DNA from: Isurus oxyrinchus
Taxonomy: Eukaryota
Reading direction: 5' to 3'
DNA length: 64,000 nucleotides
NCBI GenBank assembly: GCA_026770705.1
Contig: JANJGN010000016.1
Location: forward strand, 86,800,001-86,864,000
In this document: piece after piece, positions 50,797 through 64,000 of the stretch
How the letters are laid out: each line of letters opens with the position of its first letter
How positions within the stretch are numbered: position 1 is the stretch's first letter
Notes under the pieces: generated by a model
The model's database searches: none
Told to the model about the DNA's origin: nothing
Seen by the model: the letters and a program-made list of their open reading frames with translations, nothing else
Made by a program: the position numbers and the translations under genes

Positions 50797-50893
50797 GAGG
50801 AAGTGAAAGGTGCTGACGTGGTTCTCTCTGGGTGATACCATTTACATACTGAGGAACAGCCAGTGAGACTCTGACAGGCTGCAGCTGTATAAA
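50797..50893 (+). promoter_or_regulatory. Ig light-chain V promoter: ETS-IRF composite GAGGAAGTGAAA (50797-50808), TGACGT (50814-50819), octamer variant ATTTACAT (50840-50847), E-box CAGCTG (50882-50887), TATAAA (50888-50893)
   Basis: Octamer-TATA order and position (~60-115 bp upstream of the leader ATG) match IgL V promoters. The octamer has one mismatch to ATTTGCAT. Confidence 0.8.
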
Positions 50894-50953
50894 GCTGAGC
50901 CCAGTGAAGGGAGAGTTTATCAGTGACCAGGCACAGGGACAGGAGCAGACACC

Positions 50954-51002
50954 ATGATTTCAGCCATCCAGCTGATCTGGCCTCTGGCATTCTGCATCGC
51001 AG
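50954..51002 (+). CDS. IGKV: Ig kappa leader exon (MISAIQLIWPLAFCIA + G)
   Basis: Kozak ACCATG, hydrophobic signal peptide, phase-1 donor AG/GTAC at 51003. Splices in frame to the V exon (G-I-S-G). Confidence 0.93.
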
Positions 51003-51188: not shown

Positions 51189-51483
51189 GTATCAGTGGGG
51201 AAATCACCATGAAACAGCCTCCCCTGGTGTCAGTGAGCCTGGGCCAGACCACCACCATCACCTGTACGGCCAGTCAGTCTGTAAGCAGCTATATGAATTG
51301 GTACCAGCAGCGAGAAGGACAGAAACCGACTCTCCTGATCTATGGGGCAACAAACCGATTCACAGGAACATCCGAGCGATTCACCGGCAGTGGATCTGGC
51401 ACTCAATTCACCCTGACAATCAGCAATGTACAGAATGAGGATGTCGCTGATTATTACTGTCAGCAACGGCAAAGCTTCCCCTA
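51189..51483 (+). CDS. IGKV: Ig kappa-type (shark NS4/type III-like) V exon, unrearranged and open
   Basis: Acceptor CCCCTCAG at 51181-51188. Reads [22 protein letters not shown]...[15 protein letters not shown]...[35 protein letters not shown] with conserved Cys/Trp/Cys. Followed by a 12-RSS. Confidence 0.97.
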
Positions 51484-51511
51484 CACAGTGATACAGAGCC
51501 TGACAAAAACC
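51484..51511 (+). other. V recombination signal sequence, 12-bp spacer
   Basis: CACAGTG-atacagagcctg-ACAAAAACC; perfect heptamer and nonamer. Confidence 0.98.
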
Positions 51512-51516
51512 TCAAT

Positions 51517-53285
51517 ACACACAGCACCACCTCCTGTACTGACACATCCCACGGTTATATAGAATATATAATAATGGGCACACAGCACCACCTCCTGTAC
51601 TGACCCATCCCCCAGTTATATAGAATATATAATAATGGACACACAGCACCACCTCCTGTACTGACACATCCCACAGTTATATAGAATATATAATAATGGA
51701 CACACAGTCCCACCTCCTGTACTGACACATCCCACAGTTATATAGAATATATAATAATGGACACACAATCCCACCTCCTGTACTGACACATCCCACAGTT
51801 ATATAGAATATATAATAATGGACACACAATCCAAACTTCCTGTACTGACACATCCCACGGTTATATAGAATATATAATAATGGACACACAGTCCCACCTC
51901 CTGTACTGACACATCCCACAGTTATATAGAATATATAATAATGGACACACAGCACGACCTCCTGTACTGACACATCCCACAGTTATATAGAATATATAAT
52001 AATGGACACACTGTCCCACCTCCTGTACTGACACATCCCACAGTTATATAGAATATATAATAATGGACACACAGCACCATCTCCTGAACTGACACATCCC
52101 ACAGTTATATAGAATATATAATAATGGACACACAGTCCCACCTCATGTACTGACACATCCCACAGTTATATAGAATATATAATAATGGACACACAGCACC
52201 ATCTCCTGTACTGACAAATCCCATAGTTATATAGAATATATAATAATGGACACACAGCACCACCTCCTAACTGACACATCCCACAGTTATATAGAATATA
52301 CAATAATGGACACACAGTCCCACCTCCTGTACTGACACATCCCACAGTTATATAGAATATATAATAATGGACACACAGTCCCACCTCCTGTACTGACACA
52401 TCCCACAGTTATATAGAATATATAATAATGGACACACAATCCCACCTCCTGTACTGACACATCCCACAGTTATATAGAATATATAATAATGGACACACAA
52501 TCCAAACCTCCTGTACTGACACATCCCACGGTTATATAGAATATATAATAATGGACACACAGTCCCACCTCCTGTACTGACACATCCCACAGTTATATAG
52601 AATATATAATAATGGACACACAGCACGACCTCCTGTACTGACACATCCCATAGTTATATAGAATATATAATAATGGACACACTGTCCCACCTCCTGTACT
52701 GACACATCCCACAGTTATATAGAATATATAATAATGGACACAAAGCACCATCTCCTGAACTGACACATCCCACAGTTATATAGAATATATAATAATGGAC
52801 ACACAGTCCCACCTCATGTACTGACACATCCCACAGTTATATAGAATATATAATAATGGACACACAGCACCATCTCCTGTACTGACAAATCCCATAGTTA
52901 TATAGAATATATAATAATGGACACACAGCACCACCTCCTAACTGACACATCCCACAGTTATATAGAATATATAATAACGGACAGACCGTCCCAGCTCCTG
53001 TACTGATACATCCCACAGTTATATAGAATATATAATAATGGACACACAGTCCCACCTCCTAACTGACACATCCCACAGTTATATAGAATATATAATAATG
53101 GACACACAGTCCCACCTCCTGTACTGACACATCCCACAGTTATATAGAATATATAATAATGGACACACACCACCACCTCCTGTACTGACACATCCCACAG
53201 TTACATAGAATATATAATAATGGACACACTGTCCCACCTCCTGTACTGACACATCCCACAGTTATATAGAATATATAATAATGGT
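51517..53285. repeat. 61-bp minisatellite in the V-J interval, ~29 copies, with a 671-bp (11-unit) internal duplication
   Basis: Unit GACACACAGTCCCACCTCCTGTACTGACACATCCCACAGTTATATAGAATATATAATAATG. The TCCAAAC variant recurs at 51830 and 52501. Confidence 0.95.
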
Positions 53286-53417
53286 CACTTTACCTCTTAC
53301 CTTACATGTCCACATATGAAGAGCAGCTGAAAGATTTATCATATAAAATTGGGATTCTCAATTCTCCCAACAAAAAAAAGGCATTGAGAGGAAGAGAGAG
53401 GGAAAGAGAGAGTGTTC

Positions 53418-53569: not shown

Positions 53570-53608
53570 GGTTTTTGTACAGCCCCTGCACTGGAAGCAC
53601 TCAGTGTG
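53570..53608 (-). other. J recombination signal sequence, 23-bp spacer
   Basis: GGTTTTTGT (53570-53578), 23 nt, CAGTGTG (53602-53608; reads CACACTG on the minus strand, CAC intact). The V12/J23 arrangement is kappa-type. Confidence 0.96.
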
Positions 53609-53643
53609 GGTTACGTTCGGTAAAGGAACCAAACTCAGACTGA
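53609..53643 (+). CDS. IGKJ: Ig kappa J segment (VTFGKGTKLRL)
   Basis: FGxGT motif; phase-1 donor A/GTAAGT at 53644. Confidence 0.97.
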
Positions 53644-54294
53644 GTAAGTAAACCCCAATCCTCTCTTATTAACCCTTTCAATACTAAAACTTTCTCAAAC
53701 ACTAATGCTGAATAGTTGAAGGTGTTAGTGAGGAGCTGCAGTGAATGAAATGGTTCAGTGAACAACACTGTGTATAACAGGGTGCCCAGCTGTATTTCTT
53801 TCATTACATTCCCCCCTTTAAGCAGCAAGATAGAAATAACCAACTTTTACCCACCGTCTAGAGGAGATCTGGACGTTTGCAGACTGTGCTGACATTGCTG
53901 CACCATGGACTGAAATCACTCACTAGACTCCTGTCAGTCTCAGTGTGACAGACACGGGCAGAGTTTGATATGAGCTCCGGCTCCCTCTCACAGTCTCTGA
54001 TATAACTGATCACAGCACCAGCACAGTGAGACACCGAGGTCCCACCTCCCCCAGCTTGAACTCTGCTCTCTCCACTCCCTGGTTATCTCTTGGCAAATTT
54101 CTGATGACAAACAGGTAGAGCAGGGCCCACAATCCAGTGGCTTCAGTGTTCCAGGGTTTCGGGGAGACTCTCCGTTTCCCCCGAATGTTTAAATGTCACT
54201 CTCTAGACTCCAGACCTCCCGGAATCTGCTATCCATCTCTCTCCTGAAGACACTGTCTCTGACTGGGGAACAGCTCCACCCTCCCCAAGTGGGC

Positions 54295-54617: not shown

Positions 54618-55089
54618 ATTGAGACTGAAGGTTCCTAATCCTGACCCTCGCACTCACACTTTCCATGGTTCATGGTGTCATTCGGAGTCGTGACCTTGTC
54701 TGACCCCCAGACTCTGAGACTAATTGTAGCCTCACCCTTGACCTCTCTCCAGTGCTGGGCAGCAAGGTTTGAAATGAAATCTAGAATCTTCTATACTGAG
54801 ACCCAATCTGAATCCTTTCTGAAGTGGGTTGATCCAAATGTGCTCCAACATTCTGGGATAAAGTTCTCTCGATGTGTGTGTGATCTGAGGATTGTTAATG
54901 TGAACCTGTTTCCTCGGACAGGCTGATCAATAGTCAGAGCTTCCTGACAGCTTAACAGTGTCTTAGAGGGACACTGAGTCTTTAAACACTCTTACTATTA
55001 ACCATTTCAGTGCTGAATTTGTGGTAATCCTCTTTATAAATGTCTAAGTAACAGCCCAATATGATTTAACCAGATTAACATCAAACCTT

Positions 55090-56460: not shown

Positions 56461-56789
56461 GCAGAGAGAAGTCACCACCCACAGTGACCCTGCTGCCCCC
56501 CTCCCCAGAGGAGGTCAAGACCAAGGGCACTGCCACCCTGGTGTGCCTTGCCAATCACTTCTATCCCGATGAGGTGAAGGTGGAGTGGAAGAAGGACGGT
56601 GCAGCTATTTCGGACGGGGTTCAGACCAGCAACTACCTGCGAGCTTCAGACAGCACCTACAGCGTCAGCAGCCTGCTGACCCTCTCTGGCTCTGGCTGGG
56701 AGTCCAACGCCAGCTTCTCCTGTGTCGTCACCCACGAGAGCCTCTCCTCTCCCCTCAGCAAGAGCATCAGGAGATCAGAATGTGCGTAG
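56461..56789 (+). CDS. IGKC: Ig kappa-type constant exon
   Basis: Acceptor TTCTCTTCCATTTCAG. In frame with J: S-REKSPPTVTLLPPSPEEVKTKGTATLVCLANHFYPDEVKVEWKKDG...STYSVSSLLTL...FSCVVTHESLSSPLSKSIRRSECA*. C1-set Cys/Trp/Cys plus penultimate interchain Cys. Confidence 0.97.
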
Positions 56790-56945: not shown

Positions 56946-57085
56946 GGGACAGTGTACAGGGAGCTTTACTCTGTATCTAACCCCGTGCTGTACCTGTCCT
57001 GGGAGTGTTTGATGGGGACAGTGTAGAGGGAGCTTTACTCTGTATCTAGCCCCCTGCAGCACCTGTCCTGGGAGTGTTTGATGGG
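56946..57085. repeat. Two copies of a 69-bp repeat (GGGACAGTGTAGAGGGAGCTTTACTCTGTATCTAACCCC...) in the 3' UTR
   Basis: Copies start at 56946 and 57015. Confidence 0.85.
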
Positions 57086-57288: not shown

Positions 57289-57389
57289 AATAAACCTCCA
57301 TTCTCCCTGTGAATTTCTCCAGCTTCCTCTGGCTGGGCTGTTTATTCAAGTCTTTTTTCTGTAAATGTCAATGTGTAAAAGGTAATAAA
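57289..57389 (+). terminator. Candidate polyadenylation signals AATAAA at 57289-57294 and 57384-57389
   Basis: Canonical hexamers 0.5-0.6 kb after the C stop. The second is followed by GT/T-rich sequence. Confidence 0.7.
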
Positions 57390-57426
57390 CATTAAGAATA
57401 TTCAGTCTCTGTCTGGTGAGTGCTTT

Positions 57427-57650
57427 GGAAAGTCCCACCTCCCCATCAGCTGATTGGCTGCATTTCAGCAAGTGATTGTCCTGATTGGCTGGTTGGCCTG
57501 TCAATCAATGACACATCAACAGCAGATTTGATTCAAAGCCAAGTATCAATCATTTTAAAATGATCAGTTTTATTCTGAATCTCTTGAATTTACAAGATTA
57601 AAAACAGAAAAGAAACTGGAAGTTGCTGGGATTAAATCATCACAACCACA
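57427..57650. promoter_or_regulatory. Candidate 3' enhancer: kappaB site GGAAAGTCCC, E-boxes, inverted CCAAT boxes, RUNX site
   Basis: 57427-57436 is the reverse complement of GGGACTTTCC. CAGCTG at 57447, CAAGTG at 57469, ATTGG at 57453 and 57484, AACCACA at 57644. Confidence 0.45.
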
Positions 57651-57709
57651 ATTAAGTCAGGAGTGCAAACTGTAGCCAGTCCAGGAGATGTGCTCTCAGG
57701 CCCTGTGCT

Positions 57710-58030
57710 ACTTTTACACTCGATCCTGTTGCAATAACCACCAACATTCCATCTACCTTCCGAATCACTTGCTGCATCTGCAAACCGACTTTTTGTGATT
57801 CATGCACCAGGACACCCAGATCCCTCTGGATCGCAGAGTTCTGCAGCCTCGTTCCATTCAAATAATTTACTGCTTTTCTATTCTTCCTACCAAGCGGACA
57901 ATACACATTCTCCCACATTATTCCCCACCTGCCAAATATTTCCCCACTCGCTTAACCGATCTAAATCCCTTTATTGGCCCATTCTGTCCTCTTGACAACT
58001 TACTTTCCAAGCAATATTTCTGTCATCAAC
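57710..58030 (-). mobile_element. CR1 RT fragment
   Basis: LGRKNRKAVNYLNGTRLQNSAIQRDLGVLVHESQKV. Confidence 0.85.
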
Positions 58031-58039
58031 AAGTCTATT

Positions 58040-58510
58040 TATTTTTTATTCATTTATGGCTTGTGGGTGTCGCTGACTAGGTCAGAATCTATTGCCCATC
58101 CCTAATTGCCCTTGAGAATGTGGTGGTGAGCTGCCTTCTTGAATCATGCTGTCCACGTGGTGTAGGTACACCCACAGTGCTGTTAGGGAGGGAGTTCTAG
58201 GATTTTGACCCAGAGACAGGGAAGGAACAAGGATATATTTCCAAATCAGGATGGTGAGTGTCTTGTAGGGGAACTTCCAGGTCGTGGTTTTCCCACCTAC
58301 CTGCTGCCCTTGTCCTTCTAGATATCGGTAGTCGTGGGTTTGGAAGGTGCTGTCTAAGGAGACTTGGCGTGTTTCCGCATTGCATCGTGTAGATGGTACA
58401 CACTGCTGCCACTGTGTGTCGGTAGTGGAGGAAGTGAATGTTTGTGGATGTGGTGCCAATCAAGTGGGCTGTTTTGTCCTGGATTGTGTCAAGCTTCTTG
58501 AGTGTTGTAG
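58040..58510 (-). mobile_element. LINE 3' end fragment
   Basis: Minus strand reads IGTTSTNIHFLHYRHTVAAVCTIYTMQC..., then GGGCAATTAGGGATGGGCAATAG and an A-rich tail. Confidence 0.7.
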
Positions 58511-61500
58511 GGGGTGGAGGGGTGGGGGTGGGTGATGCCGTGGGTGGAGGTGGAGGGTGATGCCGGGGTTGGGGGCGTGGGTGATGCCGGGGGTGGGGGG
58601 GGGGTGGGTGATGTTGGAGGTTGGGGGTGTGGGTGATGCTGCCGGTGGGAGGGTGAATGATGCCGGGGGTAGCGTGATGGGTGATGCTGGGGTTGAGGTG
58701 CTGGGTGATGCCGGGGGTGGGGGAGAGGGTGATGCCGGGGGTGGGGGTGGGAGTGGGGGACAGGGTGTGGGTGATGCCGGGGGTGGGGCACAGGGTGATG
58801 CCGGGGGTGGGGGTGGGAGTGGAGGACGGGGTGTGGGTGATGCCGGGGGTGGGGGTGGGAGTGGGGGACGGGGTGTGGGTGATGCCGGGGGTGCGGGAGT
58901 GAGTGATGCTGGGGGTGTGGGAGGTGGGTGATGCTGGGGGTGCGGGGTGGTTGATGTCGGCGATAGGGGGGGTGGGTGGTTGATGTTGGGGGTGGCGTGA
59001 TGGGTGATGCTGAGGTAGAGGGGGTGAGTGATGCCAGGGATGGGGGAGTGTTTAATGCCGGAGCCGGAGGGGTGGAGGCCGGGTGGGTGGTAGTGGGTGA
59101 TGCCGGGGTGATGCCGGGGGTGGGGTTTGAGTGATGCCGGGTGTGACGTGATGGGTGATGCCGGGGGTGAGCGGGTGTGTGATGCCGGGGTAGTGGGCGT
59201 GGGTGATGCCGGGGGTGAGGGAGAGGGTAATGCCAGATGTGGGTGTGTGCATGATGCCGGTGGTGGGTGTTGAGTGATGCCGGGGTGGGTGGGTGGGTGA
59301 TGCCGGGGATGAGGCGGTGGGTAATGCCGGGTGTAGCATAATGGGTGATGCCAGGGGTGGGGGCATGGTTGACGCCAGGTGATGCCAGGGGTGGGGGGGT
59401 GGGTGATGCCAGGGTGAAGGGCGTGGATGATGCCTGGGGTAGGGATGGTGGGTGATGCAGGGGGTGGAGAAATGTGTGATGTTCTGGGTGGTGGGGTGGG
59501 TGATGCCGAGCGTGAGGGTGTGTGTGATGCTGAGGGTGGGGGTTGGTTGATGCCTGGAATGGGGGCCTGGGTGATGCAGGGGTGGGAGAGTGAGAAATGC
59601 CAGAGCTGGGGGTTGGGTGGTGCCAGGGCTGGAGGGTGAGGGACCCATGGGTGGGGGATTGGGTGATGCTGGGTTGAGGGAGAGGGTAATGCCGGATGGT
59701 GGGGGGCTGGGAGAAGCCGGGGATGGGGGAGTGTGTGATGCCGGGCGTGACAGGGTGGTGATGCCGGGGTAGGGGGTGAGGGTGATGCCGGAGTGTGGGT
59801 GGGGGTTGTGGGTGATGCCAGTGTTGGCAGTGTGGGTGTTACTGGGGGTGGGGGTGGTGGGTGATGCCGGGGGTGGTGGGGTGGATGATGCCGGGAGTGG
59901 TGGGTGAGGGTAATGCCCGTGTTGGGTGTGTGGGTGTTGCTGGGGGTGAGGGGGCAGGTGATACCGGGGGTGGGGGAATAGGGGATGCCGGGGGTTGGTG
60001 GGCTTGGGTGATGCCGGGCGTGGGGGCGCGGATGATGCCGGGGGTGGGGGTGGGGTTTGTGGGTGATATAAGGGGTGTTGGGGTCGGTGATATCAGGGGT
60101 GTTGGGGTCGGTGATGCCAGTGTTGGGGGTGTGGATGCAGCTGAGGGATGGGCTGGTGGGTGATGCCGGGGGTAGAGGGGGGAGGAGAATGCCGGGGATG
60201 GGGGTTGTGGGTTGTCGGGGGTGGGAAGGATGGTCGATGCCATGGGTGGGGGGTGGGTGATGCCGGGGTTGAGGGGGTGGGTGATGCCTGGGGTGGCGTG
60301 GTAGTCTTTGCCGGCTATGGGAGGGGTGGGTGATGCCATGGTTGAGGTTTGAAGTGATGCCAGGTGTGAAGGGGTGGTTGATGCCTGAGGTGGGGGCGTG
60401 GGTGAGGCCATGGGTGGGGGAGTTGGGTGATGCCGGTGGTGGGCGTGTTGATGATGCAGAGGTTGGGGGTGTGGCTGATGCCATGGTTGGGGGGGTGGGT
60501 GATGCTTGGGATGGGGGTGGTGGGGGAATAGGTGATGTCGAGTGTGGAGGGAGTGGGTGGTGCCGGGGGTGAGGGGGTGAGTGATGCCGGGGGTGAGGGT
60601 GCGGATGTTGCCGTGGGTGGGGTGCCAGGTGATGCCCAAAGTGGGGTGGGTAAAGCCTGCGGTTGGTGATGCCAGGGTTGGGGCCTGCGTGGTGCTGGGT
60701 TTGGGGGGCGTTGTTGATTCCGGGGATGGGGTGAGTGGATGGTGGTGCGGGTGGGGGGGGTGTGGATGATGCCGGGGATGGGAGGGGTGGGTGATGCCAT
60801 GAATGGGGGGGTGGGGGATGCCGTGAGTGGAGGGGTGGGTGATGCTAAGGTTGGGGGTTGATTGATGCCGGGGGTGGGGGGCTGGGTGATGCCGGTGGTG
60901 GGGGTGTGGGTGATGCAGGGGATGGGGTGGTTGGTGATGCCATGGGTGGGGCAGTGGGTAATGCCGGGGGTGGAGGATGTTGGTGATGCCAGGGTTGGGG
61001 GAATAGGTGATGTTGGGGGTGTTGGGATGGGTGATGCCAGGTGTGAGGGGGTGTGTGATGCCGGGGTTGTGGGCGTGAGTGACTCCTGGGGTCGGGTTGG
61101 GCGATGCTGAGGGTGGGGGTTGGCTGATGCCTAGGATGGGGGCCTAGGTGATGCCGGGGGGTGGGGGAATGTGAAATGCCAGAGGTGGGGGTGTGGGTGA
61201 TGCCGGGGCTGGTGGTGTGGGTGATGCCGGGAGCGTGTGATGCCAGTGTTGGCGGTGTGGGTGTTGCTGGGGGTGGGGGTGGTGGGTGATGCCAGGGTTG
61301 GTGGGGTCGATGATGCCGGGAGTGGTGGGTGAGGGTAATGCCCGTGCTGGGGGTGTGGGTGTTGCTGGGGGTGAGGGGGCATGTGATACCGGGGGTGGGG
61401 GAATAGGGGGTGCTGGGGGGGTGGGGGGATTGGATGATGCTGGGAGTGGGGGCTGAGGGACCCATGGGTGGGGGATTGGGTGATGCTCAGTTGAGGGAGT

Positions 61501-64000
61501 GGGTAATGCCGGAGTGTGGGGGGCTGGGTGATGCCGGGGTACGGGGTGTGGGTGATGCTGGGAGTGGGGGGTGTGGGTAATGCTCGTGTTGGGCGTTGGG
61601 TGTTGCTGGAGATGAGGGGGCAGGTGATACCATGGGTGGGAGTGCTGGGTGATGCCGAGAGTGCTGGAGTGGGTGATGCCGGGGGTTGGGGTGGGTGATG
61701 CCGGGGGTGACGTGATGGGTGATGCTGGGGTTGAGGAGGTTGGTGATGCCGGGGTGAAGGGCATGGGTGATGCCTGGGGTAGGGTGGTGGGTGATGCCGG
61801 GTGTGGGATGGTGGGTGATGCCAGGGGTGGTGAATAGGTGATGCCGAGGGTGGGGGGGGTGGGTGATGCCGGGCGTGAGGGGGTGTGTGATGCCGGGGTT
61901 GTGAGCGTGGTTGATGCCTGGGATGGGGGCCTGGGTGATGCCGGGTGTGGGGTGTGGGTGATGCCGTGGGTGGGGGGCCAGTTGATGCCGGGGTGGGGGG
62001 GTGGGTAATACCAGAGGTGGGAGTGTGGGTGATGCCGGTGGTGGAGGTTGGGTGATGCCGTGGGTGGGGGTTGGCTGATGCTGGGAGTGGGGTGGTGGGT
62101 GATGCCGCGGGTGGGGGTTGGCTGATGCTGGGGGTGGAGGTGAGGGACACATGGGTGGGGGGTTGGTTGATGCTGGGGTTGAGGGACTCGGTAATGATGG
62201 AGGTGGGGGTGTGGGTGATGCCGGGGGTGGGGGAGTGGGTGGTGCCGGGAGTGAAGGGGTCGTGATACCGGGGTAGGGAGTGTGGGTGTTGCCATGGGTG
62301 GGGGAGTGGTTGCTGCTGGGGTTACGGTGGTGGTGATGCCGGGTGTAGCATGATGGGTGATGCCAGGGGTGGTTGTGGTGGGTGATGCCGGGGGTGGGGG
62401 CACGGATGTTGCCGTGGGTGGGGTGCCAGGTGGTGTCGAGAGTGGGTAATGCCTGGGGTGGGTGTTGCCAGGGTTGGGGACTGTGTGGTGCTGGGTGTGG
62501 GTGGGGGGTGGTTGATTCCGGAGACGGGTGTATGGATGGTGGTGCAGGTGGGGGGGTGGTGTGGATGATGCCGGGTGTATGGAGGTGGGTGCTGCCGGGG
62601 ATGGTGTGGTAAGTGATGCCATGGGTGGGGTGTGGGCGTTGCAGGGGATAGGGGCGAGTGCGTGATGCCGTGGGTGGGGGGGTGTGGGTGATGCCGGGGG
62701 TGGAGGAGGTTGTTGATGCCGGGGGAGGGGCAATAGGTGATGTCGGGGGTGTTGTGGAGGGTGATGCCAGGCGTCAGGGGGTGTGTGATGCCAGGATTGT
62801 GGGCGTGAGTGATGCCTGGGGTAGGGGTTGGGCGATGCCGAGGGTGGGGGTTGGTTGATGCCTAGGATGGGGGCCTAGGTGATGCCGGGTGTGGGGGAGT
62901 GTGAAATGCCAGAGGTGGGGGTGTGGGTGATGCCGGGGCTGGGGGCCTGTATTATGCCAGGGGTGCGGAAGTGGGTAATACCAGAGCTGGGGGTGTGGGT
63001 GATGCCGGTGGTGGTGGTTGGGTGACGCCACGCGTGGGGTTTGGCTGATGCCGGGGGTGGGGGTGAGTGACCCATGGGTGAGGGGTTGGGTGAAACTGGG
63101 GGTGAGGGAGTGGGTAATGCCGGAGGTGAGGGGCTGGGAGATACCGGGGATGGGGGAGTGGGTGATGCTGGGCATGTGGGGATGGTGATGCCGGGGTAGG
63201 GGTTGTGGGTGATGCCAGGAGTTGGATTGGGGTTTGTGGGTGATGCCGGGGGTGGTGGTGTGGGTGATGCCAGCAGTGGGTGGTGCCATTGTTGGCAGTT
63301 TGGGTGTTGCTGGGAGTGGGGTTGGTGGGTGATGGCGGGTTAGTGGGATGGGTGATGCCCGGAGTGGGGTGTATGGGTGATACCACTGTTGGCAGCGTAG
63401 GTGTTGCTGGGGGTGAGGTGGGAGGTGATACCGGGAGTGGGGGTGCTGGGTGATGCCGTGGTTGGGCAAGTGGGTGATGCTGGGGGTGGGGGAATAGGTG
63501 AAGTTGGGTGTGGGGGGGGTTGGCTGGTGCCGGTGGTGAGGGGGTGGGTGATGCCGGGAGTTAGAGGGAGTGTGATGTCTGGGGTAGGGGGAGGGTAATG
63601 CTGGGGCTGGGTGATGGCAGGGTTGGTGGAGTGGTTGTTGTTGGCAGTAAGGGGGTGGGTGATGCTGGAGGTGGGGGTGGGGGTGGTAGGTGATGCTGGG
63701 TGTGGGTGTTGCTGGCGGTGAGGGTGTGGGTGATGCTAGGGGTGATGCCGGGGGTGGGTGTTGGCACGGTTGGAGGGGTGGGTGATTCTGGGGGTGGGGG
63801 TGGGGGGGGTGGATGATGCCGGGTGTGGGAGACGTGTGATGCTGGGGAGGTGGTTTGTTGCGTGAAGCCGCGGTTGGGGGTAGTTCGTGTTGCCGGGGGT
63901 GATGGGTGTGTGTGATGCCGGGTGTGGGTGATGACGGGGCTTGGGGGGGTTGGTGATGCCGGGGGTGGTGGGGTGGCTGATGCCCGGAGTGGGGGCAGTG
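58510..64000 (+). repeat. G-rich degenerate satellite (core GGGTGATGCCGGGGGTGGGG) with ~1.6-1.8-kb higher-order blocks; runs off the right edge
   Basis: TGATGCC recurs every ~15-30 bp amid G-runs. Diagnostic motifs recur at ~59590/61170/62900 and 60600/62400. Confidence 0.93.

Follow-up and report, generated by a model that had tools for sequence, protein, structure and literature searches.

The window analysed here, a stretch of 64 kb, holds one immunoglobulin (Ig) light-chain V-J-C cluster surrounded by satellites and repeats. The V promoter region (50810..50953, plus strand) shows 99.4% mean identity over 20 paralogues. It carries a TATA-like box and an octamer-like ATTTACAT, which differs by one base from the canonical octamer and is present in 21 of the 25 clusters of this type. 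The leader starts at 50954 and the V coding part runs to 51483. The V exon (51190..51511, plus strand), recognized by its V-set match and by matches to antibody V domains, has an RSS with a 12-bp spacer at 51484; an RSS and a J segment (J near 53607) were located from the sequence and by motif search at 53577..53646 on the same strand. The Ig light-chain constant exon (56462..56789, plus strand) is open, kappa/NS4-like and 108 aa long. It exists in 25 genome copies, 98-100% identical, all in C16 between 85.78 and 88.48 Mb. By sequence likeness, the cluster is presumably of the shark kappa (NS4/type III) type. It shares with nurse shark NS4 and horn shark type III clusters the split V-J-C organization and the existence of many near-identical copies, and also the arginine at the J-C junction that the available part of PMC2193156 reports for NS4 chains; for nurse shark NS4 and horn shark type III, that part mentions no 3' element.

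The cluster alignment comprises 25 clusters: the orphan partial copy L025 was left out, and L026 and L027 were counted as one cluster. At C16 86253328 and 86487839, copies of the 3' flank were found with no C exon listed nearby; these two and the orphan L025 are remnants of broken clusters. Two conserved non-repeat islands are visible in the intron. The J-proximal one (53700-54200) is 98.9% identical in 21 paralogues, is the only long intron part common to the terminal cluster, and is a good candidate for an intronic enhancer. The second (54800-55000) contains an ETS-like CTTCCTG in 22 of the 25 clusters and a PU.1-like string in 5 of them, and is missing in the terminal cluster comparison. 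The 13-mer GTCCCACCTCCCC, with CAGCT within a few bases after it, occurs both in the J-proximal island (54039-54051) and in the 3' element described below (57432-57444). Its first 11 bases are found 10 times in the 61-bp minisatellite of the V-J spacer (51517-53288) and are absent from 445 kb of background sequence, which included ten stretches beyond the last cluster; directly after this motif the terminal cluster diverges from the other clusters. The 3'UTR contains a dispersed 69-bp minisatellite (56946-57085), whose copy number differs among clusters.

The flank behind the poly(A) site

AATAAA signals are present at 57289 and 57384. One contig of the X13 run, presumed to be RNA, stops at 57404 and carries an A tail there, with no depth past this position, so that the second AATAAA (57384-89) is the used signal, with cleavage at about 57404 (57384..57404, plus strand). 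A GU-rich stretch follows (57405..57426, plus strand), in which none of the 22 columns varies among the 25 clusters and whose likely role is that of a downstream poly(A) element. The earlier note had placed an NF-kB (kB) site past the second AATAAA, and the 10-mer in question does lie there, 23 bp beyond the cleavage site.

The distribution of the segment containing this site, hereafter the element, was analyzed over the genome. With searches that skip very common words, the element gave 27 DNA matches, all inside the C16 kappa array, and its core alone gave 26 matches at E<=10, none of them outside the array. The element was found beside all 25 C-kappa exons and in 0 of 49 non-kappa loci. A dispersed-repeat origin, which the earlier note had named as a point to check, is thereby ruled out. 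In agreement with that note, for which transposon sequence resumed after the motifs, the DNA from 57654 on has matches in 21 of the 49 non-kappa loci and marks the start of a dispersed repeat. The dispersed-repeat DNA closing the shared flank (57654..58520) is of a kind, called type A, present in 11 of the 25 clusters, and is followed by a long G-rich satellite. This satellite, of 24-bp units, occupies positions 58524-64000 of the window and C16 86.864-86.884 Mb, and extends over 25 kb downstream of the cluster. At 57654 the clusters are distributed as follows: 11 of type A, 13 of type B, and the terminal cluster L024. A second, very close species (organism B) has both the A and the B junctions. 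The non-repeat flank of L024 recurs with 86-88% identity at eight places, six of which lie 14-20 kb downstream of a type B element; the boundary at 57654 is therefore likely to be an insertion site rather than the edge of a protected element.

A CCAAT-DECA composite in the shared core

The core common to the clusters measures 85 bp and contains an Sp/KLF box, two CCAAT boxes and a DECA motif. The Sp/KLF-like box CCACCTCCCC (57435..57444, plus strand), presumably recognized by a factor of that type, is present in all 25 clusters and resembles CC(C/A)C(G/A)CCC, a motif reported at Prep peaks in the available part of PMC6023610. CCAAT box 1, of NF-Y type (57450..57459, minus strand), overlaps CAGCTG (57447-52) and reads CTGATTGGCT in 21 clusters and CTGATTGGTT in the 4 others, a variant that retains the consensus. 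CCAAT box 2 (57481..57490, minus strand), 31 bp from box 1, is identical in 25 of 25. At 57498-57507, 7 bp from CCAAT box 2, CTGTCAATCA is the reverse complement of the PBX-PREP DECA motif TGATTGACAG (minus strand; motif according to the accessible text of PMC6023610), which is intact in 22 clusters and altered in 3. It is the least likely motif of the segment and had been overlooked by the earlier note. The motifs which that note did list are all present: CAGCTG, CTGATTGGCT at 57450-59 and 57481-90, CAAGTG at 57469-74, an IRF/ETS-like stretch at 57607-23 and AACCACA at 57644-50. CAGCTG and CAAGTG are each found in 25 of the 25 clusters; since CANNTG occurs about 2.1 times per 227 bp in non-kappa loci, two E-boxes correspond to the chance rate. 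The IRF/ETS-like and RUNX-like (57644-50) strings belong to an AT-rich tail (57511..57653), where 35 of 143 columns vary, and are intact in 13 and 22 of the 25 clusters respectively. Divergence of the tail (10.7% vs 9-10% in the flank) indicates that it varies approximately like flanking DNA. A PU.1-IRF composite GGAANNGAAA was searched for in the element and not found, and the CpG count is 0 in 400 bp.

The order KLF-CCAAT-CCAAT-DECA, followed by TTTTAAAA about 45 bp on, could suggest that a downstream transcript in sense orientation, probably non-coding, has the core as its promoter; this transcript would survive only in the terminal cluster and be severed by insertions elsewhere, and good splice donor and acceptor strings are indeed seen in the L024 flank. 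We consider this most improbable, as X13 depth is zero past 57404 (only presence can be read from contigs), eight paralogous flanks lack the putative second exon, and the nearest coding exons are in opposite orientation. The element was also rejected as the promoter of a neighbouring protein gene, the nearest coding exons past the last cluster being on the opposite strand. Two coding exons (L028 6800-6950 and 7788-8009, minus strand; C16 88.483-88.484 Mb) converge on the last kappa cluster, and presumably resemble the C-terminus of RABGAP1/RABGAP1L. A paralogue on C8, 65% identical, is preceded on its strand by DUF3694 exons lying about 100 kb upstream; when the neighbouring exon was compared with PDB and Atlas, the results were blank or weak.

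The location of the core directly past the used cleavage site is compatible with an aid to pausing or termination: proteins bound 30-100 bp past cleavage, on the G-rich box and on the CCAAT boxes in inverted orientation, would delay polymerase II and keep read-through out of the neighbouring cluster or repeats. A precedent, by its title, is the 1989 work of Connelly and Manley, in which an adenovirus CCAAT box is said to be part of a termination signal. A DECA partner at fixed spacing is, however, a signature of activating elements, and this function seems to us very unlikely.

To place the composite in its genomic context, its occurrences were counted over the assembly. CCAAT-N(4-12)-DECA has 85 matches in 4.98 Gb, and the reversed control pattern has 0. 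The kappa array accounts for 23 matches, and 50 of the 62 others show the same 7-bp spacer (many of them are copies of a few families). The kappa composite, which spans 26 bp, has the modal spacing of the genome, and it possesses the spacing and the DECA motif of TALE/NF-Y composites. Among the matches listed, the CpG observed/expected ratio is at least 0.6 at 17 of 34 other composite sites. The flanks of the kappa element are similar to none of 37 other composite loci.

Several of these other sites form families. In one dispersed family, flanks are shared around the CCAAT-DECA composite (L052, L053, L055, L060, L084, L089, L092 and L097); it may be an old SINE-like element by which TALE/NF-Y sites are spread. 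As a dispersed family bears a similar composite, the CCAAT-DECA motif can be spread by repeats. A CpG-rich element with CCAAT-N7-DECA occurs in a multi-copy family: L078-L083, L094-L096 (C44, C59, C127, C213, C296, C341), L091 and L063, the last being about 75% conserved. In L094-L096 and L091 the composite is 3' of a receptor-like ORF (7tm_1 confirmed for L094). The possibility that the multi-copy sites on C44 and C59 are other Ig genes was rejected: no Ig match was present among the matches listed, and the long ORF adjacent to one of these sites is a 7tm_1 receptor. No similar element was found near 11 other light-chain-like C exons (C13 and C36) by motif scan and word-size-7 BLAST of the stretches around them, so that an element common to other light-chain-like genes was also rejected.

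Variation among the clusters was then compared along the flank. Columns within motifs vary less than columns between motifs (2/40 vs 9/44, p=0.036), a value that is generous because the motifs were chosen after viewing the alignment, and that treats non-independent paralogues. Between the terminal cluster L024 and six clusters of group B there are 1-3 substitutions in 107 positions of the core, 12-16 in 135 of the tail, and 9-10% divergence in the further flank (the six comparisons share one branch). A divergence step is thus located at the end of DECA, and it is also observed within group B. Within group A there is no step (core 0.037 vs tail 0.033). The core is more variable than the 3'UTR (11/84 vs 17/305 columns, p=0.03), and diversity climbs gradually with distance from the poly(A) site. 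This gradual rise, together with the equal values of group A, is the pattern expected if gene conversion weakens with distance from the C exon.

These last observations are consistent with the core being a relic, i.e. a fragment of an old promoter or repeat with CCAAT-DECA, copied passively, homogenised by gene conversion and functionless, with the kB 10-mer as a chance deletion. The lack of CpG, the similar composite of the dispersed family, and a tree of the clusters that is mosaic and poorly resolved also point in this direction. Several results argue for constraint instead: changes fall mostly between motifs, the CCAAT-1 variant retains the consensus, divergence steps up at the DECA end (L024 vs group B, and within group B), and the core has neither flank similarity to the 37 composite loci nor another genomic copy. 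The evidence for constraint is mixed; overall we consider a relic rather unlikely, though it is the likeliest of the alternatives to our preferred reading.

Two forms of the kB site

The exact Ig-kB 10-mer reported by the earlier note, GGGACTTTCC, is present at 57427-57436 on the minus strand, as the single copy in 64 kb. After shuffling of the window it appears in 5 of 100 shuffles. In non-kappa loci the exact 10-mer occurs twice in 345 kb, and a looser kB consensus 0.036 times per 227 bp. The note took the exact 10-mer as meaningful for the locus and proposed to look at its conservation across IgK clusters and species. This comparison does not sustain the claim, as the 10-mer is a minority allele: the no-T form GGAAAGTCCC is found in 3 of the 25 clusters (L001, L002 and L021, as read from the assembly), and the 22 others carry GGAAATGTCCC, which has an extra T and is one base longer (majority 11-bp form, GGGACATTTCC). 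In organism B the main contig reads GGAAATGTCCC at full depth in all three runs, each from a different study (X6, X11 and X5), the cross-species comparison being with one other species, nearly identical here. A minor no-T allele may be present in organism B, as rare variants get dropped from contigs. Lack of conservation of the motif in paralogues, which the note itself had given as an observation that would count against it, is therefore what we observe.

In the tree of the clusters, the no-T copies do not fall together: L021 is placed with the T-bearing L023, apart from L001 and L002 (only 1 of the 22 inner branches is strongly supported), and the deletion therefore either recurred or was spread by conversion. 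From these alignments, the exact kB site is likely a derived variant produced by a recent one-base deletion. Within the cluster stretches examined, the kB consensus is absent from 20 of the 25 clusters, and none was found between J and C in the window and in the paralogue stretches.

The majority form could itself be the bound site of an NF-kB-responsive 3' enhancer, either by p50 homodimers at 11-bp spacing or by Rel proteins at a half-site, the 10-bp form being then a stronger allele. The region 57380-57439 shows zero substitutions among the 25 clusters and both kB half-sites are always retained, the 11-bp form keeping GGGAC and GGAAA; the neighbouring 3'UTR is, however, equally invariant. 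In the accessible portions of the corresponding papers, p50 homodimers are described as preferring 11-bp spacing (PMC10527052), half-site binding by Rel and binding of consensus probes by shark NF-kB family members are reported (PMC12043515), and one kB-site difference alters lambda enhancer strength between mouse and human (PMC8269369). Since the half-sites are kept, p50 prefers the 11-bp spacing and Rel binds half-sites, weak binding of the 11-bp form is possible. The 11-bp string, searched in the literature, gave only unrelated titles among the matches listed, and was not found there as a kB site. The 11-bp form has three G:C pairs at one end only and does not conform to the 10-bp kB consensus. 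With the 10-mer in 3 of 25 clusters, the IRF/ETS-like stretch intact in 13, no kB consensus in 20, E-boxes at chance rate and a mammalian kB-dependent enhancer that is intronic, the NF-kB-centred reading is unsupported, and we regard an NF-kB-responsive enhancer as distinctly unlikely.

Comparison with known enhancers and possible role

The element was compared with three known regulatory systems. In mammals, according to the available part of PMC8269369, the kB-dependent kappa enhancer (iE-kappa) is intronic and two further enhancers are located 3'. The shark element resembles iE-kappa by the identical kB 10-mer in three clusters, the E-boxes nearby and the kappa-type gene. It differs from it by lying 3' of C and beyond the poly(A) site instead of inside the J-C intron, by a canonical kB site that is not conserved across copies and species (the 10-mer is missing in 22 of 25), and by E-boxes at chance density. 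The mammalian kappa 3' enhancer and the distal enhancer Ed lie kilobases away from the poly(A) site, and the kappa 3' enhancer has a conserved PU.1-IRF composite GGAANNGAAA. Like these enhancers, the shark element is downstream of C-kappa, in unique DNA, and has an Sp-type box; unlike them, it abuts the poly(A) site, is dominated by NF-Y and TALE motifs, and has no intact GGAANNGAAA, its IRF/ETS-like stretch being intact in 13 of 25 clusters. The mammalian kappa 3' enhancer is described as dependent on SP1 in the available part of PMC8269369.

The third system is the TALE/NF-Y composite element of zebrafish. In zebrafish, the DECA motif together with a CCAAT box about 20 bp away forms a motif of about 27 bp co-bound by TALE and NF-Y; Prep peaks are enriched in an Sp/KLF motif, H3K27ac drops when NF-Y is lost, and the TALE/NF-Y elements act as enhancers (Ladam 2018, PMC6023610; Stanney 2019, 10.1101/720102; accessible parts of both). 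The shark element likewise has an exact DECA, a CCAAT box within 26 bp (about 27 reported) and an Sp/KLF-like box nearby. Contrary to the zebrafish sites, which those parts describe as active in early embryos near promoters of regulatory genes, it abuts an Ig poly(A) site, lies in CpG-free DNA, is repeated in an antigen-receptor array, and is known here from its sequence. By its motifs, the element fits neither iE-kappa nor the kappa 3' enhancer, and at the level of sequence it corresponds to the known TALE/NF-Y composite.

A cis-regulatory role is plausible, because the element is non-repeat DNA, accompanies all 25 C-kappa exons, is near a used poly(A) site and carries a non-random composite. 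The earlier proposal of a candidate ancestral IgK 3' enhancer is thus retained for its unique flank with a non-random combination of transcription factor motifs, and is unsupported in its NF-kB-centred and ancestral aspects. In our preferred reading, to which we give an even chance, the 85 bp that the clusters have in common form a predicted Sp/KLF + NF-Y + NF-Y + PBX/PREP module for ubiquitous (housekeeping) factors. It would act locally and without B-cell specificity on the cluster to which it belongs, as an opener or a weak enhancer, and so leave the cluster's 3' end accessible for transcription. More generally, the motif content suggests that the element is likely a cluster-autonomous, non-B-cell-specific cis-element with a latent kB half-site.

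By analogy with zebrafish, the DECA motif would be bound by Pbx-Prep and both CCAAT boxes, placed three helical turns apart, by NF-Y, and the bound factors would favour H3K27 acetylation and accessibility. Each self-contained minilocus would then have its own accessible 3' anchor, and B-cell specificity would need another source, such as the V promoter or the J-proximal island of the intron. Rel proteins may have a weak affinity for the 11-bp majority form, and a one-base deletion would create a canonical kB site in three clusters only. A bolder version, which we hold to be unlikely, is that every kappa minilocus has its own TALE/NF-Y/KLF enhancer behind the poly(A) site together with a latent kB site, made into the exact mammalian Ig-kB sequence by deletion in 3 of the 25 clusters. 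If this were true, the array would be a natural allelic series of a kappa gene gaining NF-kB control.

The perfect kB site, not being what the clusters have in common, is uninformative on an ancient kappa enhancer. No description of a shark light-chain enhancer was found in the literature searched, a search that covered little of the subscription immunology journals. Rearrangement of shark Ig clusters involves one or a few of them at once, and the available part of PMC2435157 ascribes this to infrequent formation of promoter-enhancer complexes. An 85-bp candidate with natural alleles (kB site of 10 or 11 bp, DECA intact or changed) makes this promoter-enhancer idea testable and, if the bolder version holds, limited TALE/NF-Y occupancy could help to choose which cluster a B cell opens.
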